Shown one piece after another: positions 28,721-48,568 of a DNA stretch of 51,676 nt. The notes beneath the pieces were generated by a model, which ran no database searches, had not been told where the DNA came from, and saw nothing but the letters and a program-made list of their open reading frames with translations. The position numbers were made by a program, and so were the translations under genes. Where the stretch lies: positions 1 through 51,676 of IMG/VR virus record IMGVR_UViG_3300009183_000012, one strand, 5' to 3'. The DNA is from a virus. Its lineage: Duplodnaviria; Caudoviricetes. Position 1 is the first letter of the stretch. Each line of letters starts with the position of its first letter.

Positions 28721-29315
28721 AGATCTGAAGCTGCCGTTCGACGGCCAGACTTTCCCCTCCGCGCTCTCGCCGGTCTTTGATGATCTCGTCGGGAAGTTGA
28801 AGGCCAAGGTGGTCATTGAGGTCGGCTCGCACAAAGGCGGATCGGCAGTGCGTTGGGCCGGGGCCATGGGGGCGGAGGGGAAACTCTACTGCGTCGACAC
28901 TTGGCTGGAGTCTGCGGAGGCAGTCCTGAACAACTCCCAGACGTACACCATCCTCCGCCAGAACGGTCATCCCATGACCTACTGGCAGTTCCTGACGAAC
29001 ATGAAGTCCCGTGGCCTGCAAGACCGGGTGGTGCCCATCGTCAACACCTCTGCCGAAGGGGCCATCCTGCTGGGTGCTGCGGAGGTGGTGGCTGACATCA
29101 TCTACGTCGACGCCTCGCACACTTTTCGGGCAGCCTATCAGGACATCTGCGACTACTGGCCGTTGCTGCGCAAGGGTGGGGTGATGCTGGTCGATGACCT
29201 GACAACCTATCCTGACGTGTACGCGGCCATGCTGCGGTTCGTATCCGAGCAAGGTCTGTGGAGCAGCTTTGAAGCTGTCGACAACAACACCTTCGGTCTG
29301 CTGACCAAGCCATGA
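28668..29315 (+). CDS. Class I SAM-dependent methyltransferase (Methyltransf_24-like)
   Basis: IEVGSHKGGS, CVDTW, DIIYVDASH, D...YWPLLRKGG..L.DD. Confidence 0.85.
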   Translation: MSSVKHILPDASVYDRVEDLKLPFDGQTFPSALSPVFDDLVGKLKAKVVIEVGSHKGGSAVRWAGAMGAEGKLYCVDTWLESAEAVLNNSQTYTILRQNGHPMTYWQFLTNMKSRGLQDRVVPIVNTSAEGAILLGAAEVVADIIYVDASHTFRAAYQDICDYWPLLRKGGVMLVDDLTTYPDVYAAMLRFVSEQGLWSSFEAVDNNTFGLLTKP

Positions 29316-29575
29316 ATTGCCAGACGTTGCAGTTAATCGTGACCTACGCCGGGGACATCACCGAGCGAGTGATCGAAAGCGGTGTTTCAGACCCCTCCCA
29401 GATCCGGCTCAACGCCTCGGGCAACACTGAACAGGTGTGTGCTGGTCTCATCCATCCCCACATGGACCCCATGCTGGTCATTGAGATTATGGGGGAAGAT
29501 CTTTTGAATGATGCCCGGAAAAACGGTGAGGTTCTTTCCCACCGCTGGGTCACCCACCAACATATCCAACCATGA
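29312..29575 (+). CDS. Hypothetical protein
   Basis: ATGA-coupled in operon. Confidence 0.6.
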   Translation: MNCQTLQLIVTYAGDITERVIESGVSDPSQIRLNASGNTEQVCAGLIHPHMDPMLVIEIMGEDLLNDARKNGEVLSHRWVTHQHIQP

Positions 29576-29859
29576 GCCAAACCATCCAAGCCCGTTCGAT
29601 CAAGATTCTCCCCAGTCAGACGCTGGATCTGCCGCTGCATTGCAAGCTGCTCGACGTCCATCTGGACATCCGCCACAACAACTGCCTCCTGTGGACCTTG
29701 GAGGACAAGGAGCGGACAACGGAGAAAGTGGACATCATTATGCTTACGGTGGATCAAACGCTCACTCCCGAGAACGCCCGGTATGTGGGCAACTTCAAGG
29801 GCAATGCCGGGGTGTGGCAGGTCTTCGCGTTGCGGGCTTCGGAGAAACTCTTCGCATGA
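29572..29859 (+). CDS. Hypothetical protein
   Basis: ATGA-coupled; beta-rich small phage family (LW..D....YVG...VW.VF). Confidence 0.6.
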   Translation: MSQTIQARSIKILPSQTLDLPLHCKLLDVHLDIRHNNCLLWTLEDKERTTEKVDIIMLTVDQTLTPENARYVGNFKGNAGVWQVFALRASEKLFA

Positions 29860-30080
29860 ACTCCCGTAAAGACTTCGTCAAATTGTCCACGGGTGACATC
29901 ATCCCCGTCAGTCAACTCCACGGCGTGGTGATTGCGAAGAAGTGGCTCTGGCTGAAAATGCAGTGGTCGTTCCGCGTGACCATCACCATGGCCGCCGCGA
30001 CTTACAGCATCGGGTTCTCCTCCCGAAAAGGGGCAGAAGATTTTTCGGATGAAGTTTTCCTCGCTTTGACCGCACCATGA
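29856..30080 (+). CDS. Hypothetical protein
   Basis: ATGA-coupled start at 29856. Confidence 0.55.
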   Translation: MNSRKDFVKLSTGDIIPVSQLHGVVIAKKWLWLKMQWSFRVTITMAAATYSIGFSSRKGAEDFSDEVFLALTAP

Positions 30081-30874
30081 AAAAACGTGTCCTCGTCTCC
30101 TGCTCCGCCAAAGGTGGAGTCCCTTACTACTGGTTCTCGTCCTACGATCAGATGATGCGGATGGACCATCCCGACTACTCGTTTGAGTTCGTGATGGAGT
30201 CGGGCAACTCGGCCATCAGCATTTCCCGCAACATCGCGGCAGCCTCGGCCATTGAGCAGGGCTACTGGAAGCTGGTCCAGATCGACAAGGACCAGTTCTG
30301 GAACCCGTCCCAGTTGGTGGCCTTGGTGTCCCGTGACGAGGACATTGTGGCTGCGCCCTACGTGAAGAAGAAGAGTGGGCCGGTCTCGTGGCTGATCGTG
30401 AAGACGCCCGGTGCCGAGGTCCGTGAGGACGGACTGCTCCAGTGCGACTTCGTCGGCACGGGCATGCTGTCCACCTCAGTGTCGGCCTTGCAGCACATGG
30501 TCGACTTCTTCCCCGAGCGCAGGTTCGACTACGAGGATGAGAGCGGGAAGACCAAGTCCATGACCGAGCTATTCCCCATTGGGCTGGTGGGTCCGAACAC
30601 CCCGGAGGGGAAGCTGGCCCGGATGGCCTTGGCCGGTACTTTCCGCGAGATGCAGGACATCCTGCACACCGACATCGAGGGAGGAGGAGGGGCCAGACTG
30701 CTGGGCGAGGACTACGGCTTCTGCCATCTGGCCCGCAAGTCCGGACTCAAGCTGTGGTGCGACACCCGTCAAGTGGTGGGCCATGTGGGCGACGTCGTGT
30801 ACCCGATCACCCCTGAAGCTCTCAGTTCTCCCGCTTCCATCCCGACCCACTCTCTCTGCCTCGACAGCTACTAA
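30077..30874 (+). CDS. GT-A fold glycosyltransferase-like protein
   Basis: SRNIAA, IDKD (DxD), DIVAAPY.KK, VGTGML, GEDYGFC..AR..G.K.W.D...VGHVG. Confidence 0.7.
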   Translation: MKKRVLVSCSAKGGVPYYWFSSYDQMMRMDHPDYSFEFVMESGNSAISISRNIAAASAIEQGYWKLVQIDKDQFWNPSQLVALVSRDEDIVAAPYVKKKSGPVSWLIVKTPGAEVREDGLLQCDFVGTGMLSTSVSALQHMVDFFPERRFDYEDESGKTKSMTELFPIGLVGPNTPEGKLARMALAGTFREMQDILHTDIEGGGGARLLGEDYGFCHLARKSGLKLWCDTRQVVGHVGDVVYPITPEALSSPASIPTHSLCLDSY

Positions 30875-30881
30875 AACCCCC

Positions 30882-31367
30882 ATGCCTAAACACACTCCAG
30901 AACAGCTTGCAGCAAAGAGGCGTTTGGCGAAACAGAAGTCCGCTGTTCGCACTGCCATGATCGAAGGGGATCTGGCCTTGGCCAAGTCCATCGCGGCCAA
31001 GGAGGGCTTTGACCTCCAAGACGCCCGACTGCCCCTGATCTACAACAACCCCTCGGAACCGTTCTTCGCGGCTCTGGATCTCGGGGAAGATGAGGCAGTG
31101 GCAGTGGCAGAGGTGGAGGTGGAGGTGGCAGAGGTGAAGGAGGTGGTGCTGGAGAACGGGTGGCCGGTGGAGTGCGAGGCCGAGGTCTGGGGTCTATGCA
31201 CCAACGCCAGTCTGATCATCGTGAAGCTCGACGACGGGCGGAAGGTGTCCCTGCAAAAGACCCGGGGTCTCCCTTACCGCACCCGGGACCGGATAGCGGT
31301 CAAGCTGTCCAAGTCTTTGGGAGACCCCCTCTACGTCGAACTGCCAAGGGCTACGACTGCGTTCTAA
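30882..31367 (+). CDS. Hypothetical protein
   Basis: ATG 30882; acidic A/V/E linker; convergent with the terS candidate. Confidence 0.6.
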   Translation: MPKHTPEQLAAKRRLAKQKSAVRTAMIEGDLALAKSIAAKEGFDLQDARLPLIYNNPSEPFFAALDLGEDEAVAVAEVEVEVAEVKEVVLENGWPVECEAEVWGLCTNASLIIVKLDDGRKVSLQKTRGLPYRTRDRIAVKLSKSLGDPLYVELPRATTAF

Positions 31368-31861
31368 ATAACGTCGAGGTCGATGACCTTCTTCTCTCCT
31401 CTCAAAGAGGAGAGAAGCTCCTCCCGGCTCATGTCGCCGTAGTTGTTGATCTGGACGCTCAGGTTGCCCTGAGAGGGCTTGGAGTTCATGGCTGCCAGCT
31501 TGTCCACCGAGATGGCCAGTGTCATGTTGAGGTCGCTCAACTTCTGTCCGCCCTCGGCCAGTTTCTCCTGAATACGGTCTACGGCCATGTCGGCCAGAGA
31601 ACGCAGACGTTCGGAGAACAGAGCCTGAAACTCTTCGGCAGATGCCCCTACCACTCGTTGGATCATGGCCCGATCATCCCCGGTAATGGGCTTACATGTC
31701 GAGCCTGTTCGTGGGACCGACTTACCAGCGATAGCCCGCTCGGCAAATTCGTCGATGACGGCATCCAGTTCGTAGGTTCTTTTCTGCGCCTTCCTTTGGG
31801 CAGAGAGGTTTGGGTTGCCCCCTTTAAGGCCGTTCAGTCGATTGATTTCGCTGCGGGTCAT
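31364..31861 (-). CDS. terS: Putative terminase small subunit
   Basis: Helical 165 aa; LAISVDK, SVQINN, MSREELL..L, VID C-terminus typical of terS-like proteins; same strand as terL. Confidence 0.5.
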   Translation of the reverse strand: MTRSEINRLNGLKGGNPNLSAQRKAQKRTYELDAVIDEFAERAIAGKSVPRTGSTCKPITGDDRAMIQRVVGASAEEFQALFSERLRSLADMAVDRIQEKLAEGGQKLSDLNMTLAISVDKLAAMNSKPSQGNLSVQINNYGDMSREELLSSLRGEKKVIDLDVI

Positions 31862-32193
31862 ATGGGTGAGTCTTTGTCGGCCAGTAAGCGGGAGATCCGG
31901 TCGTCTTTCAACGCATTTCCCAGTTTGGCCAGTCGCTCGGATTCGGTGACCGCTGCCAAGGCTTTGGTCAGGGATTGGACTTGGGTGATGGCCTCTTGCA
32001 GTTTGGACTCGGTAATCTTGAATTGGGCCAGCTCTTCGCGCAGAACCTTGCAGCGTTCCCGGTAGCGGGCGGTCACCCCCTTCATCAGGGACAGTCGGAT
32101 GATCTCGCGGTCTTTCGAGGCGAGCTTGCTGTGCAGTTCGTCGAAACGCTGCTGCCACTCGGCAACGGTCTTATCAAATTCTTCGTCGTTCAT
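31858..32193 (-). CDS. Coiled-coil hypothetical protein
   Basis: ATG 32193, ATGA-coupled on both sides. Confidence 0.6.
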   Translation of the reverse strand: MNDEEFDKTVAEWQQRFDELHSKLASKDREIIRLSLMKGVTARYRERCKVLREELAQFKITESKLQEAITQVQSLTKALAAVTESERLAKLGNALKDDRISRLLADKDSPI

Positions 32194-32585
32194 ATATGGG
32201 TCTTGATGGCTTTGGCTCTGCGTTCCTTGATCAGGTGTGGTAGGCATAAAGTGCGATTGGGGGCTGCGGGCTGGCTGCATTGGCGGCAGATTCCCTGTTG
32301 TGACCGGCGAAGGGACCAGAGGAGCTTGGCCTCCAGTCGGGCCTGTGCGATAGCGGTGTGCTGGTGGCAGTGACGCCTGCCCTTGACGGCGCACTGGCCA
32401 CAGATGACGCATAGGCCCATTGCGACCCTTTCCGCCCTCTTCAGGGCAGAAGCACGCCTCCGTTCCGCGCTTCGCGCAGAATGGATAGGGCACAGGGTCT
32501 GGCCGGGGATCACTGCTCCATTGCAGTGGGTGCAGAGGTTAAGGGCTTTGTGCTCCATTCTCCACTGAGCTTTCGATTTCGCCAT
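32190..32585 (-). CDS. Triple CxxC-x9-CxxH zinc-finger protein
   Basis: CTHC..CPIH, CVIC..CHQH, CRQC..CLPH separated by basic helices. Confidence 0.7.
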   Translation of the reverse strand: MAKSKAQWRMEHKALNLCTHCNGAVIPGQTLCPIHSARSAERRRASALKRAERVAMGLCVICGQCAVKGRRHCHQHTAIAQARLEAKLLWSLRRSQQGICRQCSQPAAPNRTLCLPHLIKERRAKAIKTHI

Positions 32586-32625
32586 GCGTTCACCAGATCG
32601 GGGGGCGTTGGCCGAGTCAAGAGTT

Positions 32626-32826
32626 TTCCCAATAAAAATGGGGGATCTCCCGCAAAACTCCGCCTATAATCAAGTATTATGCTTTTCGGGCTGTATATAT
32701 ATTTTTTATTATTATTTCTATAATTTATCTCGCGTGTAAAGTAAATCAAATAAAATAAAATACGGTAAACAATAAATCCCGTAATCTGGCGGAGTTTTCC
32801 GGCAGCTCCCCCATTCTACTTGGGAA
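32626..32826. other. AT-rich core flanked by 39-bp imperfect inverted repeats (candidate origin)
   Basis: Arms 32626-32664 and 32788-32826; core is strongly AT-rich in a GC-rich genome. Confidence 0.6.
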
Positions 32827-32841
32827 TATCTGACCGGCCCT

Positions 32842-32905
32842 GAACTGGGGGAAGACCTACTCCGAACTGGGGGAAGACCTACTCCGAACTGGGGGAAGAC
32901 CTACT
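32842..32905. repeat. Three tandem 22-bp iteron-like repeats
   Basis: GAACTGGGGGAAGACCTACTCC x2 plus a 20-bp third copy. Confidence 0.9.
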
Positions 32906-33116
32906 GTAAAATTCGATTTGGGGGTTCCAATGGATAATAAGAATTGCGCGAGCGCCCGCGCCTGACCCCCTCCCCCCCTCCCTGCTCCAGATCTGGTGCC
33001 TCGCTCCACCCGAATACCGGTCTCCCGCCGTGCCCCCACGGTCTCGTATCCGCTCCCCGCATACACGCAGCGCAACCCCATGCGGCACAAGCACTTCCGC
33101 AGACAGCTAGGACCGA

Positions 33117-33144
33117 ACTTAACATAATCACCATTGTACGTTAC
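33117..33144 (-). other. dif-like XerC/XerD recombination site
   Basis: Minus strand GTAACGTACAA-TGGTGA-TTATGTTAAGT; XerD arm 10/11 to E. coli TTATGTTAAAT; 11-6-11 geometry. Confidence 0.7.
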
Positions 33145-33184
33145 CGGAGCGCAGACGAGTGCGGCGCAGGCACTTACGCAAACA

Positions 33185-33591
33185 GGCACCCGGCACCCGG
33201 CGACTGCGGCACCCGGCACCCGGCACCCGGCGGCACCCGGCTCCGGCGGCACCCGGCTCCGGCGGTCGACGGCGGAATCCGGCGACTAGGAAACGATTCC
33301 TGCTAGTTGAAACCCATTCTCAATAACTTACGTAAGTCGCTCCCAGATCAACTTCCCCACGTCCCCACGTCCCCACGTCCCCACGTCCCCACGTCACCCG
33401 TCACCCGTCGCCGGATCCCGTCGCCCCACGTCACCCATCACCCGTCACCCGTCACCCGTCGCCCCACTTGCGTAAGTCGCCCCACTGCCCCACGTCACCC
33501 GTCACCCGTCGCCCCACTGCCCCACCGCCCCACGTCACCCGTCACCCGTCACCCGTCACCCACCAGCCCACCAGCCCACCAGCCCACCAGC
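33185..33591. repeat. Polar arrays of short repeats (GGCACCC x7, CCCCACGT x5, about ten GTCACCC, CCACCAGC x4)
   Basis: Read directly; all are C-rich on + and G-rich on -. Confidence 0.9.
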
Positions 33592-33645
33592 CCACTTCCT
33601 CACGTCACTCCACTGCCCGCCCCAACTGGTAACCGCGCCTCGAAA

Positions 33646-33661
33646 TGTTCCACATGGAACA
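33646..33661. promoter_or_regulatory. parS-like palindrome
   Basis: TGTTCCACATGGAACA, 15/16 to the parS variant TGTTCCACGTGGAACA. Confidence 0.65.
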
Positions 33662-34065
33662 ATTTCTAACTTCATGCACCGCATGCACTTACGTAAGTCA
33701 CTTACGTAAGTTACTGCGGCACAGTAACTTAGCACCGGCGTTTCCTGCCCTTTTAAGCCCACTCTAATACGTTTTCTGTCCCTGCTCTGAAATCGCGCAA
33801 GTCGCTAGTCCATCAGCGACTTCCGCATTTATGACACGGCAACCCTCTACCCATACCGCCACCGACCCCCTCAGGCCCGCAAATCGAAAGGAAACGGCCT
33901 TAGAATCGATTTCACCTAAGTCGTTCTTTCGCAACACTTTGGTGAGATCGGACTCTCCACACTATATATAGGAAAAATCCCACGCCCCCAAAGCTTATGA
34001 CACACAGAGATTACAGAATCTGTCACTTTGTTGTCGACACCTACCAATACCTGTTTCAGGGTGAC

Positions 34066-34452
34066 GTCGTTGGTGACGGGGACGGTAGCAGAGGCGGGGG
34101 GCGCGGCCCTCCAAATCTCCCCCCTCGGCCCCGACCTGACGGCCCCGAAAACCGCGCTACGTCGCGGTGGGTGATGGTGGGCCAAGCGCAAAGGAGGTGA
34201 CCGACTGCATGGGCTAACGCCCCTGCGACTGGTCTCGATCCCCCGCCCCGACCGTCTCGGTCGAAGTAGCTGCCCCCGGCAACCGCGTTCCAACCAACGC
34301 ACCGGGGGACGTACAGGTCATCCCCCCGCCTGCTGCGCATCGCTCACCGAAACCACGATCCTGACCGACGTGGAGGACCAGTGAGCAGGAACACCAAGTG
34401 GGTGTTTCCTACAGTGACCACGCCCCGCGTGGACCCTGTTGGAAGCACCCAC
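34066..34452 (+). ncRNA. Candidate structured leader/ncRNA of the early operon
   Basis: No convincing ORF; at least five successive hairpins; possible promoter TCGACA-17bp-CAGGGT at 34034-34062. Confidence 0.4.
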
Positions 34453-34475
34453 GCTTCACCCAACCAACCAAAAAC

Positions 34476-34757
34476 ATGTCTGCCGATCACATCGCCTCGC
34501 TCTGCGCTCGCTGCGATAGCGCCAGCGCCAACGCCTCCGCCTCCCTCGCCCAACTCGCAGCCCAGACCGGGCCACGCAACCGGGCCAAGTGGCGGCGCGA
34601 ACATGTCCTCCGCGTCGGCCAGCTCGACCGCGCTGCCCTCGCCCTCGCCCTCGCCCTTTGGGTCCAGCCTCACGCCGAGGACCCGCTGCCCGCCTCCTAC
34701 CGCCAGTACGCAACCACCATCCACGGCTATGCCGTCAAGCACCTCAACGTCCTCTAA
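34476..34757 (+). CDS. Early hypothetical protein (93 aa)
   Basis: CA-rich leader then ATG 34476; C-ending codon bias. Confidence 0.65.
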   Translation: MSADHIASLCARCDSASANASASLAQLAAQTGPRNRAKWRREHVLRVGQLDRAALALALALWVQPHAEDPLPASYRQYATTIHGYAVKHLNVL

Positions 34758-34758
34758 C

Positions 34759-35094
34759 ATGTCCAAACTCATCCTCCCCCGGATCCACCTCGGTGGCACC
34801 GGCCCCACCACGCTCATCGCCGATTACTCCGCTGCCATCGCGGCGTTGCAGGAAGCCCTCCGCCTGCTCGGCGAGAGCTACCACGACCGCGACTACTACC
34901 TCCTCGGTCAGGATATCCACCGCGAGGCTCGTGGTCAGCACGTCGAACGCTGCGCCGCCATCGGCGGCGTGATCGCCGCCCTCCGAGCCATGCAAGACCA
35001 CGCTGCCGACGAGCGCGACGCCCGCGACGGCATTGCCCGGGCGTGGCTCGACGCTGACGCCGACGACCACCACGCCCGCACCCGCCAACCCTAA
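34759..35094 (+). CDS. Early conserved phage protein (P.IHL.GT...RDYY family)
   Basis: ATG 34759; LPRIHLGGT and HDRDYY motifs. Confidence 0.7.
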   Translation: MSKLILPRIHLGGTGPTTLIADYSAAIAALQEALRLLGESYHDRDYYLLGQDIHREARGQHVERCAAIGGVIAALRAMQDHAADERDARDGIARAWLDADADDHHARTRQP

Positions 35095-35147
35095 GGACGA
35101 AACGCCCCCACCGGGCGTCTCGGCGTTTCGCGCCGACTGACGAGTCC
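35095..35147 (+). ncRNA. Type II hammerhead ribozyme
   Basis: GGAC-GAAA-CGCCC(CCACC)GGGCG-UC^-UCGGCG(UUUCG)CGCCGA-CUGACGA-GUCC: complete core and three paired stems. Confidence 0.9.
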
Positions 35148-35178
35148 AGCCGCCTCACCTGTTCCACCTGTTCCTCCC

Positions 35179-36213
35179 ATGTCCTCCTCCTCCCGCCTCA
35201 CCCAACTCCTCAACGCCAACCGCCGCGTCCTCCTCGTAGGTCCGCCCGGTTGTGCCAAAACCGCTCGCGTCGCCGCCGCCGCCCTCGACTGCAACCGCAA
35301 GCTCATCGTCTTCCGTTCCGCCCTCGCCGAGAGGGTGGACCTCGGTGGGTGCTACGTCCCCAACCAAGCCAAGGGCGTCACGGAATCGCTCCCGCTGCAA
35401 CTCCTCTGGGACTTGCGGCACACCACCGTCCCCACCCTGCTCTTCCTCGACGACCTCGGGCAGGCCCCCGTCGACGTGCAGGCTGCAGCGATGGCCCTGT
35501 TTGACGACGGTGCCATCAGCAAGTCGGTCGTGATCTGGGGTGCCACCAATCGACCCGGCGACAAGGCCGGTGTGACCTCGCTCTGCGAGCCGCTGCGCTC
35601 GCGGTTCCACGTTGCATTTGCGATTGCAACGCCCCAGACCGAAAACAAGACCGACGGCCCGACCTACGTCGCCCCGTGGCGCGATGAGGTCGATGCGTGG
35701 GCCGCGTGGGCGAACGAGCAGGGCTTCGCCCCTGAGCTCGTCGCGTGGCACCGGTCCACGACCGGGCGTACGTTGTACGCTTGGAAGCCCGCCGCCGACC
35801 CGGCCACCCGCATGCCCGACTTCCGCAGCTGGGAAACGGTCGGTCACCTCTGGGAGGCGGGTCTCCGCGACTTCGACACGATCAGCGCCGCAATCGGCAA
35901 GGCTGCCGCCGCAGAGTTCCTCGCCTTCGCCGCCCTCGCCGACCAGCTGCCCACTCCACAACAGGTGTGGATGGACCCGCACGGTGCCACGGTGCCGACC
36001 GAACCGGCGGCGCAGTACCTGATCGCCTCCATGCTCGGTCGGGCGGCGGAGGCCAAGTTCGCGCCGCAGCTGGTCACGTACCTGTCCCGCCTGCCCCGCG
36101 TGATGGGTGCCTACTGCGCAAAGGACGCCTTCGCCCGCCTCGGTGCCAAACTCGTCGCCAACAAGGCATGGCAGGAGTGGTGGGTCGCCAACCAAGCCCT
36201 GTTCACTGCCTGA
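35179..36213 (+). CDS. MoxR-like AAA+ ATPase
   Basis: Walker A GPPGCAKT, Walker B LLFLDD, GATNR, EPLRSRF, P.FRSWE. Confidence 0.85.
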   Translation: MSSSSRLTQLLNANRRVLLVGPPGCAKTARVAAAALDCNRKLIVFRSALAERVDLGGCYVPNQAKGVTESLPLQLLWDLRHTTVPTLLFLDDLGQAPVDVQAAAMALFDDGAISKSVVIWGATNRPGDKAGVTSLCEPLRSRFHVAFAIATPQTENKTDGPTYVAPWRDEVDAWAAWANEQGFAPELVAWHRSTTGRTLYAWKPAADPATRMPDFRSWETVGHLWEAGLRDFDTISAAIGKAAAAEFLAFAALADQLPTPQQVWMDPHGATVPTEPAAQYLIASMLGRAAEAKFAPQLVTYLSRLPRVMGAYCAKDAFARLGAKLVANKAWQEWWVANQALFTA

Positions 36214-36223
36214 TAGCTCACCG

Positions 36224-36252
36224 ACCTACCACCCTGCCGCAGGGTGGTGGGT
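36224..36252 (+). promoter_or_regulatory. Intergenic 13-bp hairpin (processing/attenuation)
   Basis: ACCTACCACCCTG-CCG-CAGGGTGGTGGGT. Confidence 0.5.
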
Positions 36253-36299
36253 TGCCTTAGCTCTCAACTCAACTCAACCAACCAACAACAGGTATCACC

Positions 36300-37082
36300 A
36301 TGAAACTCAGTTCCCGCGCAGTTATCGCAGTCCTCAACGTCGGTGCATGGCGCGTCGTCAAACGCCATGCCGCCGAGACCGCAGTCGAGAACGCTCGGCA
36401 CGGTCTCACCAACGAAGCCCGCGTCGACGTCAAGATCTGCGCCCACCATGCCTTGGAATCCATCGCCGAGCTTCATTCTGAAGCTCGGCTTGAGCACTAT
36501 CGGCTCACGCTCCCCTGCGCAGACAAGGGTTTGCGCCTCCTCCCTGCCGCCCGACAGTTCGAACACAGTGAGATCATGAAGGACTTCGCCGCCCGCATCC
36601 AGCAGCTGGTGACGACGTTCCTTGCGGACTACGACACCGTCCGCACCGACGCCCCGGCTCGGCTCAACGGCCTCTACGTCGCCGCCCATTGGCCAACGCA
36701 CGAGGTGGTTGAGTCCAAGTTCTACTTCACCACCCGCTACCTCCCGGTGCCCGACGTCGGGCAGTGGGCCGAGTGGCTGGAAGAGGCGTCGGCCTGCGCC
36801 CAAGATGAACTGCGCGAGCGTCTCGCCGATGCCGTCGTCAAGGTCGCGCAGAAGTTGCGCGACCCCAAGGCAATCTTCCGCGACACCCTCGTGTCCAACC
36901 TGACCGAGATCCTCGCCCTCGTCCCCGACCTCAACCTCGCCGACGACCCGGTCATCGCCGACCTCGCTCGCCAAGCGGGTGACCTCGTCGAGCACGACGC
37001 CGACACCCTGCGCGATGACCCCATCGCTCGCGCTAACACGGCGTCCCGCGCCAATGAAATCTGCACCATGTTCTCCCTGTAA
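36300..37082 (+). CDS. DUF3150-like helical protein associated with the AAA/VWA pair
   Basis: HY..TLP..D.G.RLLP, Y....WP....V..KF, IFRDTLV.N...L....P.LN..DDP. Confidence 0.6.
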   Translation: MKLSSRAVIAVLNVGAWRVVKRHAAETAVENARHGLTNEARVDVKICAHHALESIAELHSEARLEHYRLTLPCADKGLRLLPAARQFEHSEIMKDFAARIQQLVTTFLADYDTVRTDAPARLNGLYVAAHWPTHEVVESKFYFTTRYLPVPDVGQWAEWLEEASACAQDELRERLADAVVKVAQKLRDPKAIFRDTLVSNLTEILALVPDLNLADDPVIADLARQAGDLVEHDADTLRDDPIARANTASRANEICTMFSL

Positions 37083-37094
37083 ACCTGTTTTACC

Positions 37095-38300
37095 ATGTCC
37101 ACCACACCCATCGCTATCGACAAAGCCCGCTACTGGGCGCTCACCACTCCGCACGCTGCCTTCTACGGCAGCCTCGCCTCCAACTTGGTCGACGTCATGG
37201 ACCCCTCGGTCCAGACCGCTGCGACCGACGGCAAGGTCATCCGCTGGAGTCCGGAGTTCGTCGCCTCCCTCACGCCGGAGGAGGTGCGCTTCGTGCTCCT
37301 GCACGAGACCCTCCACTGCGCCCACAACCACTTCGACCGCTTGCCCATTACCCCCGAGGGTAACGAGGCAGGCGACTACGCGATCAACGCCGTCCTCGAA
37401 AAGGTCGCCGGGATCACGATGCCCAAGGGTGGGCTGCGCGACACCAAGTACGACGGTCTCGCGGAGGAGGAAATCCTCGCCGCCCTCCGCCGCAAGCCGC
37501 AGCCCAAGCCGCAGGATGGCCAGCCCGGCCAGCCCGGCCAGCCCGACCCCAACGGCCAGCCCGACCAGCCCGACCCCAACGGCCAGCCCGACCCCGGTGG
37601 CTGCGGCGGGTTTGGCCCGCCTGCACCCTCTGCCCCGCCTGCCCCCGGCAAGGCCGCGCCGCAGACGATGGCGGAGAAATGGACGCAGGCCATCGTGCAG
37701 GCCGACATGGCCGCACGCAGCCTCGGCAAAGGCAATGCGCCCGCCGAGATGCAGCGCATCATCGACGCCGCGACCGCTGCGGCCAAGCTCAACTGGAAAG
37801 ACGAGACCGCGGACTTCCTCAAGTCCAGCATCGCGACCCGCAACGATTGGACCCGCTCGGCCCGCCGGTTCGCGGGTGCTCCCGTGATCTATCCCCGCCG
37901 CCGGGTCGACTCGACCGGTCTCGTGGTGTTCGTCCGCGACACGTCGGGCAGCGTCGACGACAAGCTCACGGCGCAGTTCACGGCGCTCATCGCGCAGTGC
38001 TGCGGCGACCTGAACTGTGAGGCTCTGGTCATGGACTGCGACACGATCATCCACGCCGAGTATCGCCTCGCACCCGGCGAGGAAGCGCCCCTGCACGCCA
38101 AGGGCGGCGGAGGCACCGACTTCCGCGAGCCCTTCGCCCGCGTCGCGGAGCTGGTCGAGTCGGGCGAGAACGTCGCCGGTCTGGTCTACCTGACAGACCT
38201 CTGCGGTGACGAACCCGACACGGTCGACGTCTCGACCCTGTGGTTGTCCACGACCAAGTCGGTCGCCCGCACTGGTCACACGGTCCACGTCGACCTGTGA
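37095..38300 (+). CDS. DUF2201-like metallopeptidase plus VWA domain protein
   Basis: TAATDG, HETLH (HExxH), N.A.D..IN, MIDAS DTSGS, GGGGTDF, YLTD. Confidence 0.85.
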   Translation: MSTTPIAIDKARYWALTTPHAAFYGSLASNLVDVMDPSVQTAATDGKVIRWSPEFVASLTPEEVRFVLLHETLHCAHNHFDRLPITPEGNEAGDYAINAVLEKVAGITMPKGGLRDTKYDGLAEEEILAALRRKPQPKPQDGQPGQPGQPDPNGQPDQPDPNGQPDPGGCGGFGPPAPSAPPAPGKAAPQTMAEKWTQAIVQADMAARSLGKGNAPAEMQRIIDAATAAAKLNWKDETADFLKSSIATRNDWTRSARRFAGAPVIYPRRRVDSTGLVVFVRDTSGSVDDKLTAQFTALIAQCCGDLNCEALVMDCDTIIHAEYRLAPGEEAPLHAKGGGGTDFREPFARVAELVESGENVAGLVYLTDLCGDEPDTVDVSTLWLSTTKSVARTGHTVHVDL

Positions 38301-38307
38301 CCCACCA

Positions 38308-38331
38308 CCACCCTCCCTCGGGGGAGGGTGG
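38308..38331 (+). promoter_or_regulatory. Intergenic 10-bp hairpin upstream of the Gly-X array
   Basis: CCACCCTCCC-TCGG-GGGAGGGTGG. Confidence 0.5.
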
Positions 38332-38339
38332 CCCCTTTC

Positions 38340-38645
38340 ATGACCACGATCAACGGCAACGGCATCGGCATCGGCTACGGCTACGGCAACGGCTACGGCA
38401 ACGGCTACGGCGACGGCTACGGCGACGGCGACGGCAACGGCTACGGCGACGGCTACGGCGACGGCGACGGCGACGGCTCCGGCAACGGCTACGGCTACGG
38501 CTCCGGCTCCGGCTACGGCTACGGCTACGGCATCGGCATCGGCGACGGCTACGGCTGCGGCATCGGCGACGGCTACGGCTGCGGCGACGGCGTCTTCGCC
38601 CGACGCGCCGACGACCCATTGCAGGCACTCACCACCCTCTCATGA
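38340..38645 (+). CDS. Gly-X repeat protein 1 (101 aa)
   Basis: MTTING-(GX)n-GVFARRADDPLQALTTLS. Confidence 0.8.
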   Translation: MTTINGNGIGIGYGYGNGYGNGYGDGYGDGDGNGYGDGYGDGDGDGSGNGYGYGSGSGYGYGYGIGIGDGYGCGIGDGYGCGDGVFARRADDPLQALTTLS

Positions 38646-38881
38646 CGACGATCAAAGGCGACGGCATCGGCTACGGCTCCGGCTACGGCTACAACAACGG
38701 CGACGGCTACGGCTACGGCTACGGCTCCGGCTACGGCTACGGCTACGGCATCGGCAACGGCGACGGCTACGGCGACGGCTCCGGCGACGGCTACGGCATC
38801 GGCGACGGCTACGGTGACGGCGACGGCGTCTTCGCCCGACGCGCCGACGACCCATTGCAGGCACTCACCACTCTCTCATGA
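38642..38881 (+). CDS. Gly-X repeat protein 2 (79 aa)
   Basis: ATGA-coupled; same N- and C-terminal caps. Confidence 0.8.
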   Translation: MTTIKGDGIGYGSGYGYNNGDGYGYGYGSGYGYGYGIGNGDGYGDGSGDGYGIGDGYGDGDGVFARRADDPLQALTTLS

Positions 38882-39257
38882 CGACGATCAAAGGCGACGG
38901 CTACGGCTACGGCTCCGGCTACGGCTACAACAACGGCGACGGCTACGGCTACGGCATCGGCTCCGGCTCCGGCTCCGGCTACGGCAACGGCAACGGCTAC
39001 GGCTACGGCATCGGCATCGGCTACGGCAACGGCAACGGCTACGGCTACGGCATCGGCAACGGCTACGGCGACGGCGACGGCTACGGCTACGGCCATGGCT
39101 ACGGCTACGGCGACGGCTACGGCTCCGGCTACGGCAACGGCTCCGGCTCCGGCTCCGGCTCCGGCAACGGCGACGGCTCCGGCAACGGCAACGGCCAAGG
39201 CACCGGAGTCTTCGCCCGACGCGCCGACGACCCATTGCAGGCGCTCACCACCCTTTC

Positions 39258-39261
<4 letters not shown>
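38878..39261 (+). CDS. Gly-X repeat protein 3 (127 aa)
   Basis: ATGA-coupled; same caps. Confidence 0.8.
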
Positions 39262-39563
<302 letters not shown>

Positions 39564-39594
39564 CAAACAACAACAACCAAAAACAGATATCACC

Positions 39595-39861
39595 ATGAGC
39601 AACATCATCACCCCCGGCTGGCACATCGTCGTCGTCGACAGCGGCTTCGTCTTCTGCGGCGACTGCATCCACAACGAGGATACCCTCGTCATCACCAACG
39701 TCAAACAACTCCGCCAGTGGGGCACGACCCGTGGCCTCGGCGAGTTGGTCAACGGACCCACGACCAAGACCGTCATCGACCCGATCCCGTCGGTCATCGT
39801 GCCCCGCGCCCGCGTGATCTTCACGATCCCCGTGAACGACAAGAAATGGAGCAAGGCATGA
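39595..39861 (+). CDS. DUF6948-like small beta-barrel protein (88 aa)
   Basis: IVV.D.GFVF.G ... R.WGTT.GLGEL..GP...T.ID. Confidence 0.65.
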   Translation: MSNIITPGWHIVVVDSGFVFCGDCIHNEDTLVITNVKQLRQWGTTRGLGELVNGPTTKTVIDPIPSVIVPRARVIFTIPVNDKKWSKA

Positions 39862-40134
39862 TCACCACGTACTGGGTCACCCCCACGAAAGGGAACCTTG
39901 GTAGCGGCACCTTGCGCAAGCAGCGGGGGGTACCGCCACATCGTGTCCCGACCGGTGCTGATCTGGGACGACTCCACCACGCCCCCCACGCTGCTGCGCC
40001 AACAGCAGCCGTGGAAGGCCGTGAGTGCTGGCGCACCCATGCACCCCTTCTTCCTCCACCGCGACAAACTTTATCGCGTGCCGTCTATCACTGAACCCTG
40101 CATCGCCGAACTCGTCTTCGATCATCAACCGTAA
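39858..40134 (+). pseudogene. Hypothetical gene split by a +1 shift at a G6 run (39925-39930)
   Basis: ATGA-coupled start in one frame; C-ending codon bias continues in the +1 frame after GGGGGG. Confidence 0.5.
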
Positions 40135-40139
40135 CCACC

Positions 40140-40721
40140 ATGTCCATCTACATCACTCCCGAAATTCAGAAAGCCCTCACCGACCTCGGCTGGCCCGAAG
40201 TTCCCGATGCCCGTCTCAGCACTTACGTTCACCACCGCTCCACCAGCGAGCCTTCGATCTACGTGCGAGCGGTCAAACGTCGTGGCTATGGGCACCCAAC
40301 CAGTCCCACCAAGTTCGTCGTGGGCTGCGACTACAAAGACGCTATCGGCGTCGACGCGATCAAACCCCACACCGTCAACATCGAAGCGACCAAGTGGGTG
40401 CAGTCGCTGTTCCGCTGGCACACCACCGCGACGTTCAAGCTGGTCGAGATCCGCGCCAAGCATGCCGAGCGCGACCGTGAGACGAAGCGCAAGAACTCTC
40501 GCCGCGAAGCTCACGCCGAGGAACTCAAGGCGATTACCGGCGACACCGGCTGCCTTGTGGCCGGTGGCGTAGCCGACGACGGCAGCTATACCAGTATCCG
40601 GTTAAACCTGACACTGATCAACAAGCTCAATGAGCGACTCGCTTACCAGCCGATTGCCGCTGCGGCGAAACGTGGAGGGGAGTTGATCACGCTCCTCAAG
40701 GAGCACGGCTTCCTGACGTGA
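40140..40721 (+). CDS. Hypothetical protein
   Basis: 193-aa ORF with early-gene codon bias. Confidence 0.7.
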   Translation: MSIYITPEIQKALTDLGWPEVPDARLSTYVHHRSTSEPSIYVRAVKRRGYGHPTSPTKFVVGCDYKDAIGVDAIKPHTVNIEATKWVQSLFRWHTTATFKLVEIRAKHAERDRETKRKNSRREAHAEELKAITGDTGCLVAGGVADDGSYTSIRLNLTLINKLNERLAYQPIAAAAKRGGELITLLKEHGFLT

Positions 40722-40748
40722 GATAGTTCAAGGCAGGTATTGTAGGCA

Positions 40749-40770
40749 TTGACACGAACGCGAGTTCGTG
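40749..40770 (+). promoter_or_regulatory. TTGACA -35 box overlapped by inverted repeat CACGAAC-gcga-GTTCGTG
   Basis: Upstream of the primase operon. Confidence 0.45.
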
Positions 40771-40789
40771 ATCGTGGTGCCACCCTGCA

Positions 40790-40921
40790 ATGACTCCCTC
40801 TCAACTTGCCGCCGCCCTTGGACGATTGTCCAAAGGCAAAAAGAAAACCCTGTCGAAGGCCGAGATCGCCCGACGGACCAAGCGATTGGCCGAAGCGCGG
40901 AAGTTGAGGTGGTCCAAATGA
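40790..40921 (+). CDS. Small basic peptide (43 aa), missing from the ORF track
   Basis: MTPSQLAAALGRLSKGKKKTLSKAEIARRTKRLAEARKLRWSK; its stop overlaps the primase ATG. Confidence 0.6.
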   Translation: MTPSQLAAALGRLSKGKKKTLSKAEIARRTKRLAEARKLRWSK

Positions 40922-43362
40922 GCGCCCGCTACTTCAGCGGACTCGCCAGCCACCTCGGACAGGTCCACGAGTTGCCCCACCAGACCTTCGCAGAGCTGGT
41001 CGAGGCAACCGTGGCCAAGCCGGTGCAGCTGGCACTCACTCGGCCCCAGATGTTCGCCCTGCCCGACAAGGCGCAGAACGAAGCCAAGCGCACTGCCTAT
41101 CTGGTGCCAGCGGTCTTCAAGACCAACCCCTCACCCCGCCAGACTGACGCGGCAACACACTGCAACCTGTTATTCGTCGACATCGACGACGGAGCAGAGA
41201 CGCAACGCATCCTCAACGTCGGACCCGCCACCCTGTTGGGGGATCTCGCCGCCGTGGTGTGGCACACTGCCCGCTCGACCCCCGACAAGCCCCGCCTCCG
41301 CGTCATGGTCTCAACCGAGAATCTGCCGGTCACCCAGTACGCCCGGGCAGTGACCGCACTGGCGGGACTGCTCGGCATGAGTTCAGTCACCCACGAATCC
41401 AAGGTTGCCGTCCAACCCATGTATGTCCCGGTTCAATACGCGGGAGATGCGACCACCCCGCTGGTCTATGACAACCCGGATGGCACCAGCTTCGACCACG
41501 CCACCCTTGCGGCACTCGACAATCTGCGCTCGGCCAATCCCCCCGCGCCGGAGGATGCCGACTTGGGCGACATCGAATACCTCCGTGCCCCGGTCGAGGA
41601 TATCACGACCGAGGAGATCACCGAAGCACTGACCAAGCTTGACGCCTCCTGCTCCATGCAGGCGTGGGTCGAGGTTGGCATGGGTCTCAAGCACCAGTTC
41701 GGACCCGCCGGTCTCGCCCTGTGGGACCAGTGGTCTGCCACCTCCGACAAATACCCGGGCCGGGAGGAGTTGCAGAAACGCTGGGACTCCTTCGCCGCTT
41801 CGCCCGCAGGGCGCGTCCCCATCACCATCCGCAGCATCATCCACGCTGCCACCGAGAACGGCTGGGACAACCGAGCCCTTGCCTCCCGCCTCTTTGAGAC
41901 CACCCGGGAATGGATCAGGTCCGACCAACGCTCCTCCGAGGAACTGCTCGACCAAGGGGGCAAGCGCATAGCCAAACTGGATACGATGATCGGAGCCTTG
42001 GAGCGCAAGGTTCTCCTCTCCGATCTCCACTCTGCGACCAAGGCCCGTGGGCTGCGTGGACCCACGGTGCAAGACCTGTCGCGTGAGGTGCAGCGATTGA
42101 CCCAGACCGCCACCCGTGCCGCCAGCAGTGCCCCACCTTGGACGGTCGGCATCGCTTTCCTCACTGCCCCCAACCTGTTTTACCGTTACCTCGACCGTCG
42201 CAAAATGCGGGGCGAGGTGGTCGACCTCATCTACCGCAGCCCCGACCCGACCCAGATGACCCGGCAATACCTCGTCCACGACGTGGGCATCCCCGTGGTG
42301 GAGAATCTGCGTTACGCACCCTCCGAGAGGAAACGTCTGTTCTCCTCTGGTGGCGTGCCGTATCTCAATACCTACTTCCCCTCCTTCGCCCCGCCCGATG
42401 CCAGTCAGTCGGTCTTGGCAGGCACACACTGGGAGGAGCATGCGATTAACCTTATGGGTGCAGACTATTGGGTCACCCTCACCGACTGGCTGGCTTACCA
42501 AGTGCAGCACCCCGGCAAGAAGATCCGCTGGGCACCCGTCATCCAGTCTGCGGTAGGCGGGGGCAAAGGGCTGGTTGCCCACGTCGCGACCCTTGTCTTG
42601 GGCAGCCCCAACGTGCAACGGCTCGCAGCCGAACATGTCTTGGAAGGCAGCCACAACGGCTGGGCTGCCAACTTTCAACTCACCGTCTTGGACGAAGTCC
42701 GCATCATCGGAGCCAACCAGCACCGGGTCATGGACAAGCTCAAGCCCTGCATCTCGGACGACTCCATCTCAGTGCGTCAGATCTATGAGCCGGTGATGAC
42801 GACGCCTAACGTCACCAACTACATCTTGTTCACCAACTATCACGACTCGCTCGCAGTCCATGACGAGGACCGTCGCTACTTCGTCGTCAACAGTCCTCTC
42901 AAGGACCGGCAGGCGATCCTTCGCTTGGGTTCCGACTACTTCGACCGCATGTACTCCACCTTCGCAGCCAACGCAGGCGGACTGCGGCACTTCTTTGAGA
43001 ACTGGAAGATCTCCCCCACGTTCAAGCCCGAGGGTCGGGCACCCATCACTCCGTTCCTCGGTGCCCTCGCCAAGCAGACGGCTTCGCCTCTGTCCCGTGC
43101 CGTGAGCGAGGCATTGGAGGATGAACCCACCCCACTGGTGCGCCGTGACCTCGTGTCCCTGACGGAACTACGGCAATCCCTCCCCTCGCACCGACTGCCA
43201 GCCTTCACCGATCAAGGTTTGTCCGGCATCCTGAGGGACAAGGGCTTCACCGATCTCGGTCGGCATCCCCTGAACGGCGAACGGCACTCGCTCTGGACGA
43301 CGAGAGACGAGCCATTGGCTGTCACCCTTGGCCACGCGCAGGCGCGACTCGATCTTTTCTGA
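40918..43362 (+). CDS. Primase-helicase (PrimPol-like + PriCT-2 + SF3/DUF5906-like)
   Basis: FVDIDD and WHT..S..P.LRV; W.EVGMGLK..LWDQWS..KY; Walker A GGGKG, VLDE, FTN..D....DRRYFV; probable start 40918. Confidence 0.85.
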   Translation: MSARYFSGLASHLGQVHELPHQTFAELVEATVAKPVQLALTRPQMFALPDKAQNEAKRTAYLVPAVFKTNPSPRQTDAATHCNLLFVDIDDGAETQRILNVGPATLLGDLAAVVWHTARSTPDKPRLRVMVSTENLPVTQYARAVTALAGLLGMSSVTHESKVAVQPMYVPVQYAGDATTPLVYDNPDGTSFDHATLAALDNLRSANPPAPEDADLGDIEYLRAPVEDITTEEITEALTKLDASCSMQAWVEVGMGLKHQFGPAGLALWDQWSATSDKYPGREELQKRWDSFAASPAGRVPITIRSIIHAATENGWDNRALASRLFETTREWIRSDQRSSEELLDQGGKRIAKLDTMIGALERKVLLSDLHSATKARGLRGPTVQDLSREVQRLTQTATRAASSAPPWTVGIAFLTAPNLFYRYLDRRKMRGEVVDLIYRSPDPTQMTRQYLVHDVGIPVVENLRYAPSERKRLFSSGGVPYLNTYFPSFAPPDASQSVLAGTHWEEHAINLMGADYWVTLTDWLAYQVQHPGKKIRWAPVIQSAVGGGKGLVAHVATLVLGSPNVQRLAAEHVLEGSHNGWAANFQLTVLDEVRIIGANQHRVMDKLKPCISDDSISVRQIYEPVMTTPNVTNYILFTNYHDSLAVHDEDRRYFVVNSPLKDRQAILRLGSDYFDRMYSTFAANAGGLRHFFENWKISPTFKPEGRAPITPFLGALAKQTASPLSRAVSEALEDEPTPLVRRDLVSLTELRQSLPSHRLPAFTDQGLSGILRDKGFTDLGRHPLNGERHSLWTTRDEPLAVTLGHAQARLDLF

Positions 43363-43737: not shown

Positions 43738-44151
43738 ATGTCACTAGAAACTGAAATCGCCAGCCTCACCCTTGCGGTGCAGGCTTTGACCAAAGCTCTC
43801 GCCTCCCAGCAGACCGCGCCCGTCGAGGCTACGCAGGAAGCCCCCGCCCCCGCCCCCGAGCCGGTCAAGGCCAAGCCCGCCAAGGTCGCCAAGCCCGCCA
43901 AGGTCGAAGCCCCGGCCCCTGAGCCCATCGTCGAGCCCACGCCCGAGCCCGTCGCTGCCGCCGAGCCTGCCCCGGCCAAGAAGTACACCGTGCAGGACAT
44001 CCGCACCCTCGCCCAACAAGCCTTGGACGACGGCAAGCTGGCCGGAGTCGTGGCGATCAACAAGGAGTTCGGCCTGAAGAAGATCTCCGAAGCGACCGAG
44101 GACAAGTTCGCCGACATCATCGCCCGCCTGACCACCCTCGTCCATGGGTAA
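43738..44151 (+). CDS. Pro/Ala-linker protein preceding DUF2800
   Basis: MSLE..I..L N-terminus, PAPEP linker, FG.KKISE C-terminus; conserved APSE-like module position. Confidence 0.7.
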   Translation: MSLETEIASLTLAVQALTKALASQQTAPVEATQEAPAPAPEPVKAKPAKVAKPAKVEAPAPEPIVEPTPEPVAAAEPAPAKKYTVQDIRTLAQQALDDGKLAGVVAINKEFGLKKISEATEDKFADIIARLTTLVHG

Positions 44152-45280
44152 GATCGACATCGGAGCCTCCTCGGCTCATCGGTGGACAGTCTGCACCGCA
44201 TCGCCGCAGTTCATCCTCGACCACGAGGATGACCTCCCGTCTGACCGGTCCAGTTACGCCGACGAGGGCACTCTCGCCCATGCCGTAGCTGCCAACATCC
44301 TGCTCAACCAGCCTATTCCAACTGGGCTGTCGGACGAACTTGTCGGCTACGTCAACGGCTACGTTGCTCACGTCCAATCGCACGGTGGCAAGCTGGCGGT
44401 GGAGACCAAGCTGCCGCTGTTCTACATGCCAGACCGCAACGGCATTGTCGATGCGGCAAGTTCGACGCCTGACGCCATCTACATCGACGACCTCAAGTAT
44501 GGGGTCGGGGTGTCGGTGGACGCACAGGACAACGAACAGCTGGCCATCTACGGCGAGTCAATCATCCGCCAGTGGGAGCAGGCGATCACGTTCAAGCCCG
44601 ACCACCGCATCCACCTCACCATCTACCAACCCCGTGACCGCAACAACCCAGAACCTGTTCGCACATGGGTGCTGACTCGTCGTGAGTTGGCGGAGTTGGC
44701 TGGCTGGATCGAGGGCAAGGCGGAGGAAGTCATGTCAGGCAAGGGGGTGTTCAAGGTATCGGACAAGGGGTGCCGGTTCTGCAAGGCCAAGGGGCTTTGC
44801 TCTGCCTACGCAAACCAAGGTCTGGTCGCACTGCCCGAGGCTGCCCGCGTGATCGAACTGCCGGATGCGAGTACGCTCCCCCGCTCCGAGCGGGTCAAAG
44901 TCTTGGCTGCCAAGAAAGTTCTCATCGACTGGCTGGAAGCAGTCGAGGACCAAGAGGTATCTGAACTGATGGCTGGCGCAGACCCGCAGGGGTTCAAGCT
45001 GGTCAGCGGGAAGAGCAACCGTGTGTGGTCGGATCCCGACTCCGCTCAGAAGCTGCTCTCCCTGCACCTCAATTTAGACGTAACGAGGCCGAGAGCAGAC
45101 CTCATTTCGCCCCACAAGGCGGAACAAGCTCTCAAAAACAAAGAGTTGTCGAAGCGTTTCCAGACGCGCCTTCACTCGCTCATCACAAAGCCGGAGGGGA
45201 GACCCACGTTGGTCGCCGAAAGCGACCCACGACCGGCACTACTGCTAGAAACCACGTTCGACAACCTCGACGTAATATAA
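44144..45280 (+). CDS. DUF2800 PD-(D/E)xK (Cas4-like) exonuclease
   Basis: ASSAHRW..C..S, ADEGTLAH, GIVD, DLKYG.G..V, QL..Y, CRFCKAK..C. Confidence 0.85.
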   Translation: MGKIDIGASSAHRWTVCTASPQFILDHEDDLPSDRSSYADEGTLAHAVAANILLNQPIPTGLSDELVGYVNGYVAHVQSHGGKLAVETKLPLFYMPDRNGIVDAASSTPDAIYIDDLKYGVGVSVDAQDNEQLAIYGESIIRQWEQAITFKPDHRIHLTIYQPRDRNNPEPVRTWVLTRRELAELAGWIEGKAEEVMSGKGVFKVSDKGCRFCKAKGLCSAYANQGLVALPEAARVIELPDASTLPRSERVKVLAAKKVLIDWLEAVEDQEVSELMAGADPQGFKLVSGKSNRVWSDPDSAQKLLSLHLNLDVTRPRADLISPHKAEQALKNKELSKRFQTRLHSLITKPEGRPTLVAESDPRPALLLETTFDNLDVI

Positions 45281-46007: not shown

Positions 46008-46050
46008 ACCCTCAAGCCCCGTGTGGAAACACACGGGGCACAATTTTCCC

Positions 46051-48287: not shown

Positions 48288-48568
48288 TGACCGAAGCCCA
48301 ACTGGAACGCAAGGTGGTGGAGTTCTGCCATGAGTATAAGCTCCTCACCTACAAGTTCTCCTCCCCCGCCCACCGAGGAGTGCCTGACCGCGTCATCCTT
48401 TACCACGGTCGCGCCCTCTTCCTTGAACTGAAACGCCCCGGCAAGAAGCCCACCAAGCTGCAAGAGCGGGAACTGGGGCAGCTGCGGGCCTCGGGTTGCG
48501 CCGCCGACTGGGCCGACAACTTGGAGACTGCCCGTAATATCATCCTCAAATTCGCCGTCTCCACATGA
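48284..48568 (+). CDS. VRR-NUC nuclease
   Basis: E..LE, KF.SP..RGVPDR, FLELKRPG..PT.LQ. Confidence 0.85.
   Translation: MMTEAQLERKVVEFCHEYKLLTYKFSSPAHRGVPDRVILYHGRALFLELKRPGKKPTKLQERELGQLRASGCAADWADNLETARNIILKFAVST

Follow-up and report, generated by a model that had tools for sequence, protein, structure and literature searches.

A type II hammerhead ribozyme motif at a gene boundary of an uncultured freshwater phage belongs to a widespread subfamily with a four-base-pair stem II

The locus and the anatomy of the motif

The window analysed here is the whole of a virus record of 51,676 bases, complete and with direct terminal repeats, from an uncultured freshwater phage. On its plus strand, at 35095-35147, a 53-nt type II hammerhead motif occupies an intercistronic gap (Table 1). 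Twenty-three listed sequencing runs contain the sequence; they are metagenomes, guessed to be of DNA, from freshwater and lake water with one from wastewater, and no RNA run is among those listed.

The head and terminase genes of the phage lie on the minus strand. Both the GC skew and the strand of the open reading frames (ORFs) switch at an AT-rich stretch at about 32600-33000, so that the ribozyme, which is in sense, sits about 2.1 kb inside the non-structural arm. The sequence-only reading had called the genes on either side "early"; judged by position, downstream of the strand switch and upstream of the replication genes, this label is plausible. The ORF upstream of the motif had no match in Pfam or PHROG, and a blastn search of 34381-36213 against a phage collection returned no match. 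For the protein at 37095-38300, phrog_1314 supplies the name "HNH endonuclease", which looks misleading in view of the DUF2201 and VWA-like domains that Pfam recognizes there.

Table 1. Features at and around the ribozyme (positions in the window unless a related contig is named)
Feature	Position	Strand	Remarks
Upstream ORF	34381..35094	+	Longest frame 237 aa; its TAA at 35092-35094 abuts the ribozyme
Stem II 3' half, GGAC	35095..35098	+	Pairs with 35144-35147; C35098-G35144 is the 11.1-10.1 pair
Core G12 A13 A14	35099..35101	+	Invariant in 95/95 aligned rows, the bases being fixed by the search pattern
Stem III hairpin	35102..35118	+	From A15.1 (35102) to U16.1 (35118); 6 pairs; loop CCACC at 35108-35112
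C17	35119	+	Predicted scissile bond 35119/35120, from the consensus position
Stem I hairpin	35120..35136	+	6 Watson-Crick pairs and a closing U.G pair; loop UUC
Core C3 U4 G5 A6 C7 G8 A9 (CUGACGA)	35137..35143	+	From alignment to the RF02276 consensus
Stem II 5' half, GUCC	35144..35147	+	Followed by A35148
31-nt leader	35148..35178	+	G-poor, C/U-rich, without a Shine-Dalgarno sequence
AAA ATPase gene	35179..36213	+	PF00004, PF07728, phrog_1297; first gene past the ribozyme
DUF2201 putative metallopeptidase and VWA-like protein	37095-38300	+	Pfam; same downstream gene block
Primase	40768-43362	+	Pfam/PHROG
Exonuclease	44144-45280	+	Pfam/PHROG
DNA polymerase	46021-48018	+	Pfam/PHROG
Helicase	48565-49878	+	Pfam/PHROG
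A/C-rich gene starts (examples)	36300, 37095, 40140; 9304-10737 (minus strand)		
GCCUC box, window	35148-35160		
GCCUC box, contig L003	2458-2471		
GCCUC box, contig L009	2047-2060 and 2458-2471		Two copies
GCCUC box, contig L004	1975-1990		

Read from 5' to 3', the motif is ordered GGAC / GAA / A-CGCCC-CCACC-GGGCG-U / C / UCGGCG(U)-UUC-(G)CGCCGA / CUGACGA / GUCC. The core of the hammerhead class is present, with CUGACGA at 35137-43, GAA at 35099-101 and C, not G, at 35119. A rule for rejecting hammerhead candidates, given in a 2011 report (PMC3088659), turns on the core-adjacent pairs A15.1-U16.1, G10.1-C11.1 and N1.1-N2.1; all three are present here, as A35102-U35118, G35144-C35098 and U35120-A35136. 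Loops cap stems I and III, and both ends of the RNA come in by way of stem II, which is the type II permutation. The complete core, the three stems and the type II order, all described earlier from the letters of the window, were thus confirmed base for base. The motif was also correctly said to start right after the TAA at 35092-35094 and to end 31 nt before the ATG at 35179, and the cut predicted after C35119 falls on C17 of the consensus.

Most of the listed ATG starts in the genome are preceded by A/C-rich words (ACC, as in …AACCACC ATG and …CTAACC ATG) and few by GGAGG-like sequences, which suggests a host that would initiate translation largely without Shine-Dalgarno pairing. Since the genome apparently makes no use of Shine-Dalgarno sequences, the composition of the 31-nt leader is normal for this phage. 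A promoter and terminator scan of 29000-41000 gave counts near shuffle expectation and nothing at 35095-35147; the sigma-70 consensus used for it is uninformative here.

Around the ribozyme the DNA is about 70% GC, and much of the remaining genome is about 57-61%. Across 34000-39400, most 400-bp windows contain 66-72% GC. Besides the ribozyme and the AAA ATPase gene, this block includes those for the DUF2201 protein and a Gly-rich repeat ORF, and its composition hints at a separately acquired module.

The motif in the window and its covarying subfamily

To locate hammerheads we scanned both strands of the 51,676-base window with a descriptor for types I, II and III, which needs the core words, the core-adjacent pairs, at least 4 bp in stems I and III and at least 3 bp in stem II. 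Exactly one site was returned, 35095-35147. In 100 dinucleotide-preserving shuffles of the whole window the descriptor found no site. The motif at 35095-35147 is not a product of chance.

Folded in isolation, the 53-mer has the hammerhead three-way junction as both its minimum-energy and its centroid structure (-23.6 kcal/mol, z = -2.0), and 10 of 200 shuffles fold at least equally well. In a 141-nt context the minimum-energy fold retains hairpins I and III and pairs GGAC elsewhere (z = 0.0). According to these folding models, the 4-bp stem II is thermodynamically marginal.

In a 251-base search, the Rfam model Hammerhead_II (RF02276) aligned to 35095-35155 end to end with 28.1 bits and E = 5.9e-4; calculated per genome, the same match has E = 2.9e-5. 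Because 28.1 bits is less than the gathering score of 37 bits, which is a database threshold and not a biochemical criterion, the default Rfam scan of the whole window was blank, with no match at gathering scores. A Hammerhead_II scan had been named in the sequence-only reading as a check. Its outcome was divided: the best match at the site is indeed Hammerhead_II, but it remains under the cut-off.

Two other low-scoring matches were discarded as noise. A second Hammerhead_II match at 10137-10199 (plus strand, 18.4 bits) is without the GAAA segment, contains several mispairs and lies inside a minus-strand ORF. An HDV-like match at 35000-35079 (minus strand) scored 18.8 bits (E = 1.2), where the cut-off is 50. 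A tRNA scan of the window gave no genes.

From the window copy we derived a family pattern consisting of GGACGAAAC, a gap, GTC, a gap and CTGANGAGTCC. Stem II is fixed in this pattern and no pairing is demanded in stems I and III. It matches at least 141 stretches of viral contigs, with two to five copies on many contigs, and at least 148 distinct sequences are listed from these matches. When parsed naively from the ends inward, 134 of the 148 listed sequences have at least five nested pairs in stem I and 134 of the 148 have at least five in stem III. The remaining 14 we took to be mis-parses of the regular expression, in which an earlier GTC within stem III was read as the cleavage triplet.

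Covariation was assessed on a 95-row alignment made up of family members with regular stem and loop lengths (given as 92; three of 93 references belong to the clade described below) and the five clade copies. In this alignment 96.7% of the cells pair, a percentage that is inflated by design because rows were pre-selected for regular stems. Changes on both sides of a pair occur in 439 cells, compared to 145 ± 10 in shuffles, and none of 500 shuffles reached 439. Slid controls all dropped to 31-43% paired. Double changes affect all seven pairs of stem I and five of the seven pairs of stem III (12/14 together). This covariation shows selection of the motif as an RNA.

A covariance model, R1, was built from the same alignment and run on 100 family loci (L010-L109). 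It gave 131 matches, 12 of them outside the pattern. In five of these 12 copies the 4-bp stem II has changed on both strands and is still paired (AGAC/GUCU, GAAC/GUUC, GGUC/GACC twice, and GACC/GGUC). Applied to the window, R1 found a single site with 64.4 bits, a score that is not independent since the window copy is in the seed. The Rfam model, when run on 20 family loci, yielded 12 Hammerhead_II matches, all under the Rfam cut-off (best 33.6 bits). The pattern also occurs in 86 stretches of a species-representative genome set; by record title these belong to Actinomycetota, Acidobacteriota, Proteobacteria, Bacteroidota, Planctomycetota, Chloroflexota, Melainabacteria and one haloarchaeon.

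Several features recur in these sequences. Among the 148 matches listed, an A precedes GGAC in 142 and an A follows GUCC in 109, and stem I is 7 bp long in 101 and 6 bp in 26. At the last position of stem I, at least 90% of the 95 aligned rows have a U, and 64 of the 95 form a U.G pair there. The window copy shares these features in A35094 (the final A of the TAA stop), A35148 and the U35126.G35130 pair.

We also looked for the pseudoknot between loop I and the 3' tail. According to the 2011 report, most type II hammerheads have this contact, and rapid cleavage depends critically on it in many of them (PMC3088659); speed at physiological Mg2+ requires a tertiary contact. No such pseudoknot of at least 4 bp was found in the window, where the best complementary run was 1 nt (2 nt with a widened loop). 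Across the subfamily, complementarity between loop I and the tail equalled that of re-paired controls and there was no pseudoknot signal. As the type II features that can be tested on sequence are present, the low Rfam score and the missing pseudoknot point to a subfamily and not to a position outside the class. These comparisons place the window element inside the class, in what appears to be a pseudoknot-free subfamily with a 4-bp stem II.

A distinct tail was seen in part of the family. The exact complement of the core word CUGAN directly follows stem II in 26 of 134 family members among the matches listed, and UCAG lies just 3' of stem II in 27 of 134 of them, compared to 2.4% of control windows. 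The base opposite N7 covaries in these tails: it is A with U7 in 22 of 22 cases and G with C7 in four of five. Examples are L024, L033, L084 and L104. A tail of this kind would form a hairpin masking the catalytic core. It is absent from the window copy, whose tail is AGCCGCC.

Gene context and close relatives

To describe the gene context of the family we used the 141 of the 148 listed sequences that have long enough flanks. An upstream ORF of at least 40 codons has its stop within -12 to +3 of the ribozyme, in sense, in 120 of these 141 listed matches (61 at 0 or +1). The corresponding controls gave 97 of 700 random positions and 26 of 141 in antisense. A downstream ORF starts within 80 nt, in sense, in 130 of the 141 listed (median 23 nt), compared to 398 of 700 random positions and 86 of 141 in antisense; this second control is a weak one, as GC-rich DNA often contains open frames.

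Viral contigs related to the window were collected by similarity of the downstream AAA protein. Three of them (L003, L009, and L004) hold four further ribozyme copies, giving a clade of five copies with that of the window. L003 and L009 (AAA protein 92%) have a ribozyme in the same gap as the window. L009 carries a second copy 410 nt upstream, so that its two copies flank one 110-aa ORF (2072-2404), and both begin at, or just past, a stop codon. L004 (AAA protein 84%) has one copy, located one gene farther upstream, and is without a ribozyme in the gap homologous to that of the window. No ribozyme was found in the homologous gap of L005 to L008 (AAA protein 75-80%). For two of these loci, L006 and L008, model R1 found no copy anywhere in the corresponding contigs G004 and G005, records that are 77% and 60% complete. 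Because the ribozyme is patchy among relatives with the same gene order, this arrangement of genes can, on the evidence of these contigs, do without it.

The core and stem II are identical in all five clade copies. Stem I, on the other hand, is UCGGCG/CGCCGA in the window and L003 and CAGUGC/GCACUG in L009 and L004, so that all six pairs are exchanged and still pair. The window and L003 have a common upstream gene (59% identity), and the part that they share starts near the Met codons at 34726 or 34756 of the window. L009 and L004 have other upstream genes; the ribozyme is therefore not tied to one upstream gene.

Two side observations were made on these copies. A GCCUC box lies 3-5 nt past GUCC in all five and is constant across the stem I variants (Table 1); no complementarity between this box and loop I was found. 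A single C in loop III is the one difference between the two L009 copies, and the ORFs before each share an RQAA(F/L)xAWD stretch (L009 1473-2404), which suggests that a gene-plus-ribozyme unit was duplicated in tandem.

The homologous gaps of the relatives were also folded. That of L008 (2240-2290) contains a perfect 23-bp hairpin, with -61.7 kcal/mol and z = -7.8 for a 101-nt stretch. In L005 and L006 the gap contains a weak hairpin with a U run behind it, and no structure was found in the gaps of L004 and L007. The idea that a terminator replaces the ribozyme in the relatives is weakly supported, as the L005/L006 hairpin fails the terminator scan and the L004 and L007 gaps are empty.

Possible roles and comparison with known systems

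The identification of the element as a type II hammerhead, made at the outset from the sequence, has gained strong support from the core, the topology, the compensatory changes in relatives and the large covarying family. Its motif, topology, sense orientation and intercistronic position were observed directly. Cleavage and the chemistry of the ends are extrapolated from the class. We consider it likely that the element is a genuine type II hammerhead within a plus-strand polycistronic non-structural transcript, which it would split by cutting after C35119. By analogy with its class, it probably cuts the long phage message at this gene boundary.

Under this model the transcribed 53 nt would fold into the three-way junction and cut themselves after C35119 by internal transesterification. 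This would leave the upstream message with a 2',3'-cyclic phosphate just past its terminal stem III hairpin. A 5'-OH would head the downstream message, which encodes the AAA ATPase, a 260-aa ORF, the DUF2201 protein and further products; this new end would lie 59 nt ahead of the AUG, where the stem I hairpin starts. The leader at 35148-35178 would serve as the 5' UTR of this 3' product, behind the stem I hairpin and the core remnant, and the decay of each transcript half, perhaps also its translation, would be independent of the other. Whether a 5'-OH protects an RNA or exposes it depends on the RNases of the host. The proposal of the sequence-only reading that cleavage uncouples the stability of the downstream transcript from the upstream genes, and any effect on the mRNA stability and expression of the AAA/DUF2201 block, is offered here as hypothesis only; uncoupling of this kind is the standard hypothesis for phage hammerheads (PMC3088659). 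A processing role fits the stop-to-start placement seen across the family.

One could ask whether there is a ribozyme here at all, or only two GC-rich hairpins, terminator-like or protein-binding, that fell by chance beside core-like words. At about 70% GC around the site hairpins are common, and the Rfam score is under its cut-off; nevertheless we regard this as extremely unlikely, given that the descriptor found nothing in 100 shuffles of the whole window, that the core words stay in register in five of five clade copies while the stems vary, and that neither hairpin precedes a U run, the terminator scan being blank at 35095-35147. Another possibility is that the ribozyme is active and serves mainly to lower expression or to make a transcript end: the exposed 5'-OH would be degraded by a host 5'-3' exonuclease of the RNase J type, as happens to the product of the glmS ribozyme in Bacillus subtilis, or cleavage would define the upstream 3' end. 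The stable stem III hairpin at the end of the 5' product would suit such a role, and the 23-bp hairpin of L008 and the hairpin with U run of L005 and L006 hint at transcript punctuation in phages that have no hammerhead in this gap. We think this unlikely, however, as the terminator scan does not accept the L005 hairpin, the gaps of L004 and L007 are without structure, and the 3' product would start with the stable stem I hairpin, which is usually protective of 5' ends.

It could also be speculated that the element is a modular passenger, an intergenic cassette spread among phages by recombination or duplication that is able to fold and brings no specific benefit at this boundary. Its patchiness among close relatives would agree with this, as would the near-identical ribozymes before different genes (the AAA gene for the window and L003, different ORFs for L004 and the first copy of L009), the two L009 copies one C apart on either side of a small ORF, and the occurrence of the subfamily in 86 stretches from many bacterial phyla and one haloarchaeon. 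The genes flanked by such elements are not constant in the 2011 report either (PMC3088659). This is very unlikely, however: there is no known mobility mechanism for a 53-nt motif in a dsDNA phage, and the strict sense and stop-to-start placement (120 and 130 of 141 among the matches listed), together with the invariant core and the compensatory stems, argue for a role in the mRNA.

The pseudoknot-free subfamily might use another tertiary clamp, formed by A35094 and A35148 docking on the loop I uridine, and cleavage might be coupled to translation. We consider this quite unlikely. The features on which it draws are the 4-bp GGAC/GUCC stem II between conserved A's, the 6-7 bp stem I and the conserved U that closes loop I. 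In 61 of 141 family members among the matches listed, the ribozyme touches or overlaps the upstream stop codon, and because of this contact a ribosome terminating upstream would cover stem II and block folding. If this were true, cleavage would report whether the upstream cistron is translated.

Earlier publications already contain the arrangement, its phage context and the idea of transcript processing, and the window ribozyme is a clean, ordinary example that would not surprise a specialist. It adds a well-documented case to a functionally unsolved phenomenon, that of self-cleaving ribozymes between phage genes. The subfamily with a 4-bp GGAC/GUCC stem II and no pseudoknot is abundant in viral contigs and is also present in genomes from many phyla, and standard annotation misses it because its members lie under the Hammerhead_II cut-off. 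The clade, with one ribozyme at one boundary and relatives that are naturally without it, would be a simpler system than multi-copy arrays in which to study the effects of cleavage on the flanking messages.

Among engineered elements, RiboJ is a synthetic insulator that goes back to the hammerhead of a satellite RNA. In front of a coding sequence it removes upstream RNA, leaves a 5' hairpin and standardises downstream expression. The phage element resembles it in being a hammerhead before a coding sequence, and differs in being natural and of a different permutation.

The closest likeness in form is to the type II hammerheads of Perreault 2011 and RF02276, which have the same core and the same permutation, with stems I and III capped and stem II open. 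Stem II is 4 bp here, GGAC/GUCC with flanking conserved A's, whereas it is 2 bp in the Rfam RF02276 consensus. The pseudoknot between loop I and the 3' tail in the consensus of Perreault 2011 was not found in the window copy or in the subfamily. The 2011 report also describes hammerheads clustered among prophage genes, where they flank one gene or a short block and are proposed to process long phage transcripts (PMC3088659). The window copy occupies the same kind of place, in sense between phage genes, and has the same proposed processing role. The window has a single copy, L009 has two on either side of its 110-aa ORF, and many family contigs have two to five.

In Desulfovibrio vulgaris, cyPhyRNA-seq showed the activity of three type II hammerheads located near phage-like genes (Olzog et al. 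2021, PMC8782182). They cleave both in vivo and in vitro, and their cleavage leaves 2',3'-cyclic-phosphate and 5'-OH ends. They share the type II topology and the phage-like neighbourhood with the window copy and differ from it in organism and sequence. Finally, the HHphage variant of the haloviruses HF1 and HF2 lies 13 nt upstream of an early helicase gene, and a mapped transcript 5' end falls within 3 nt of its cleavage site, as given in the 2011 report (PMC3088659). Like the window element, it is a hammerhead closely upstream of the start of an ATPase-type gene in an early region. It is a core variant in an archaeal virus, on the other hand, whereas the core of the window copy is canonical and 31 nt separate the motif from the AUG.
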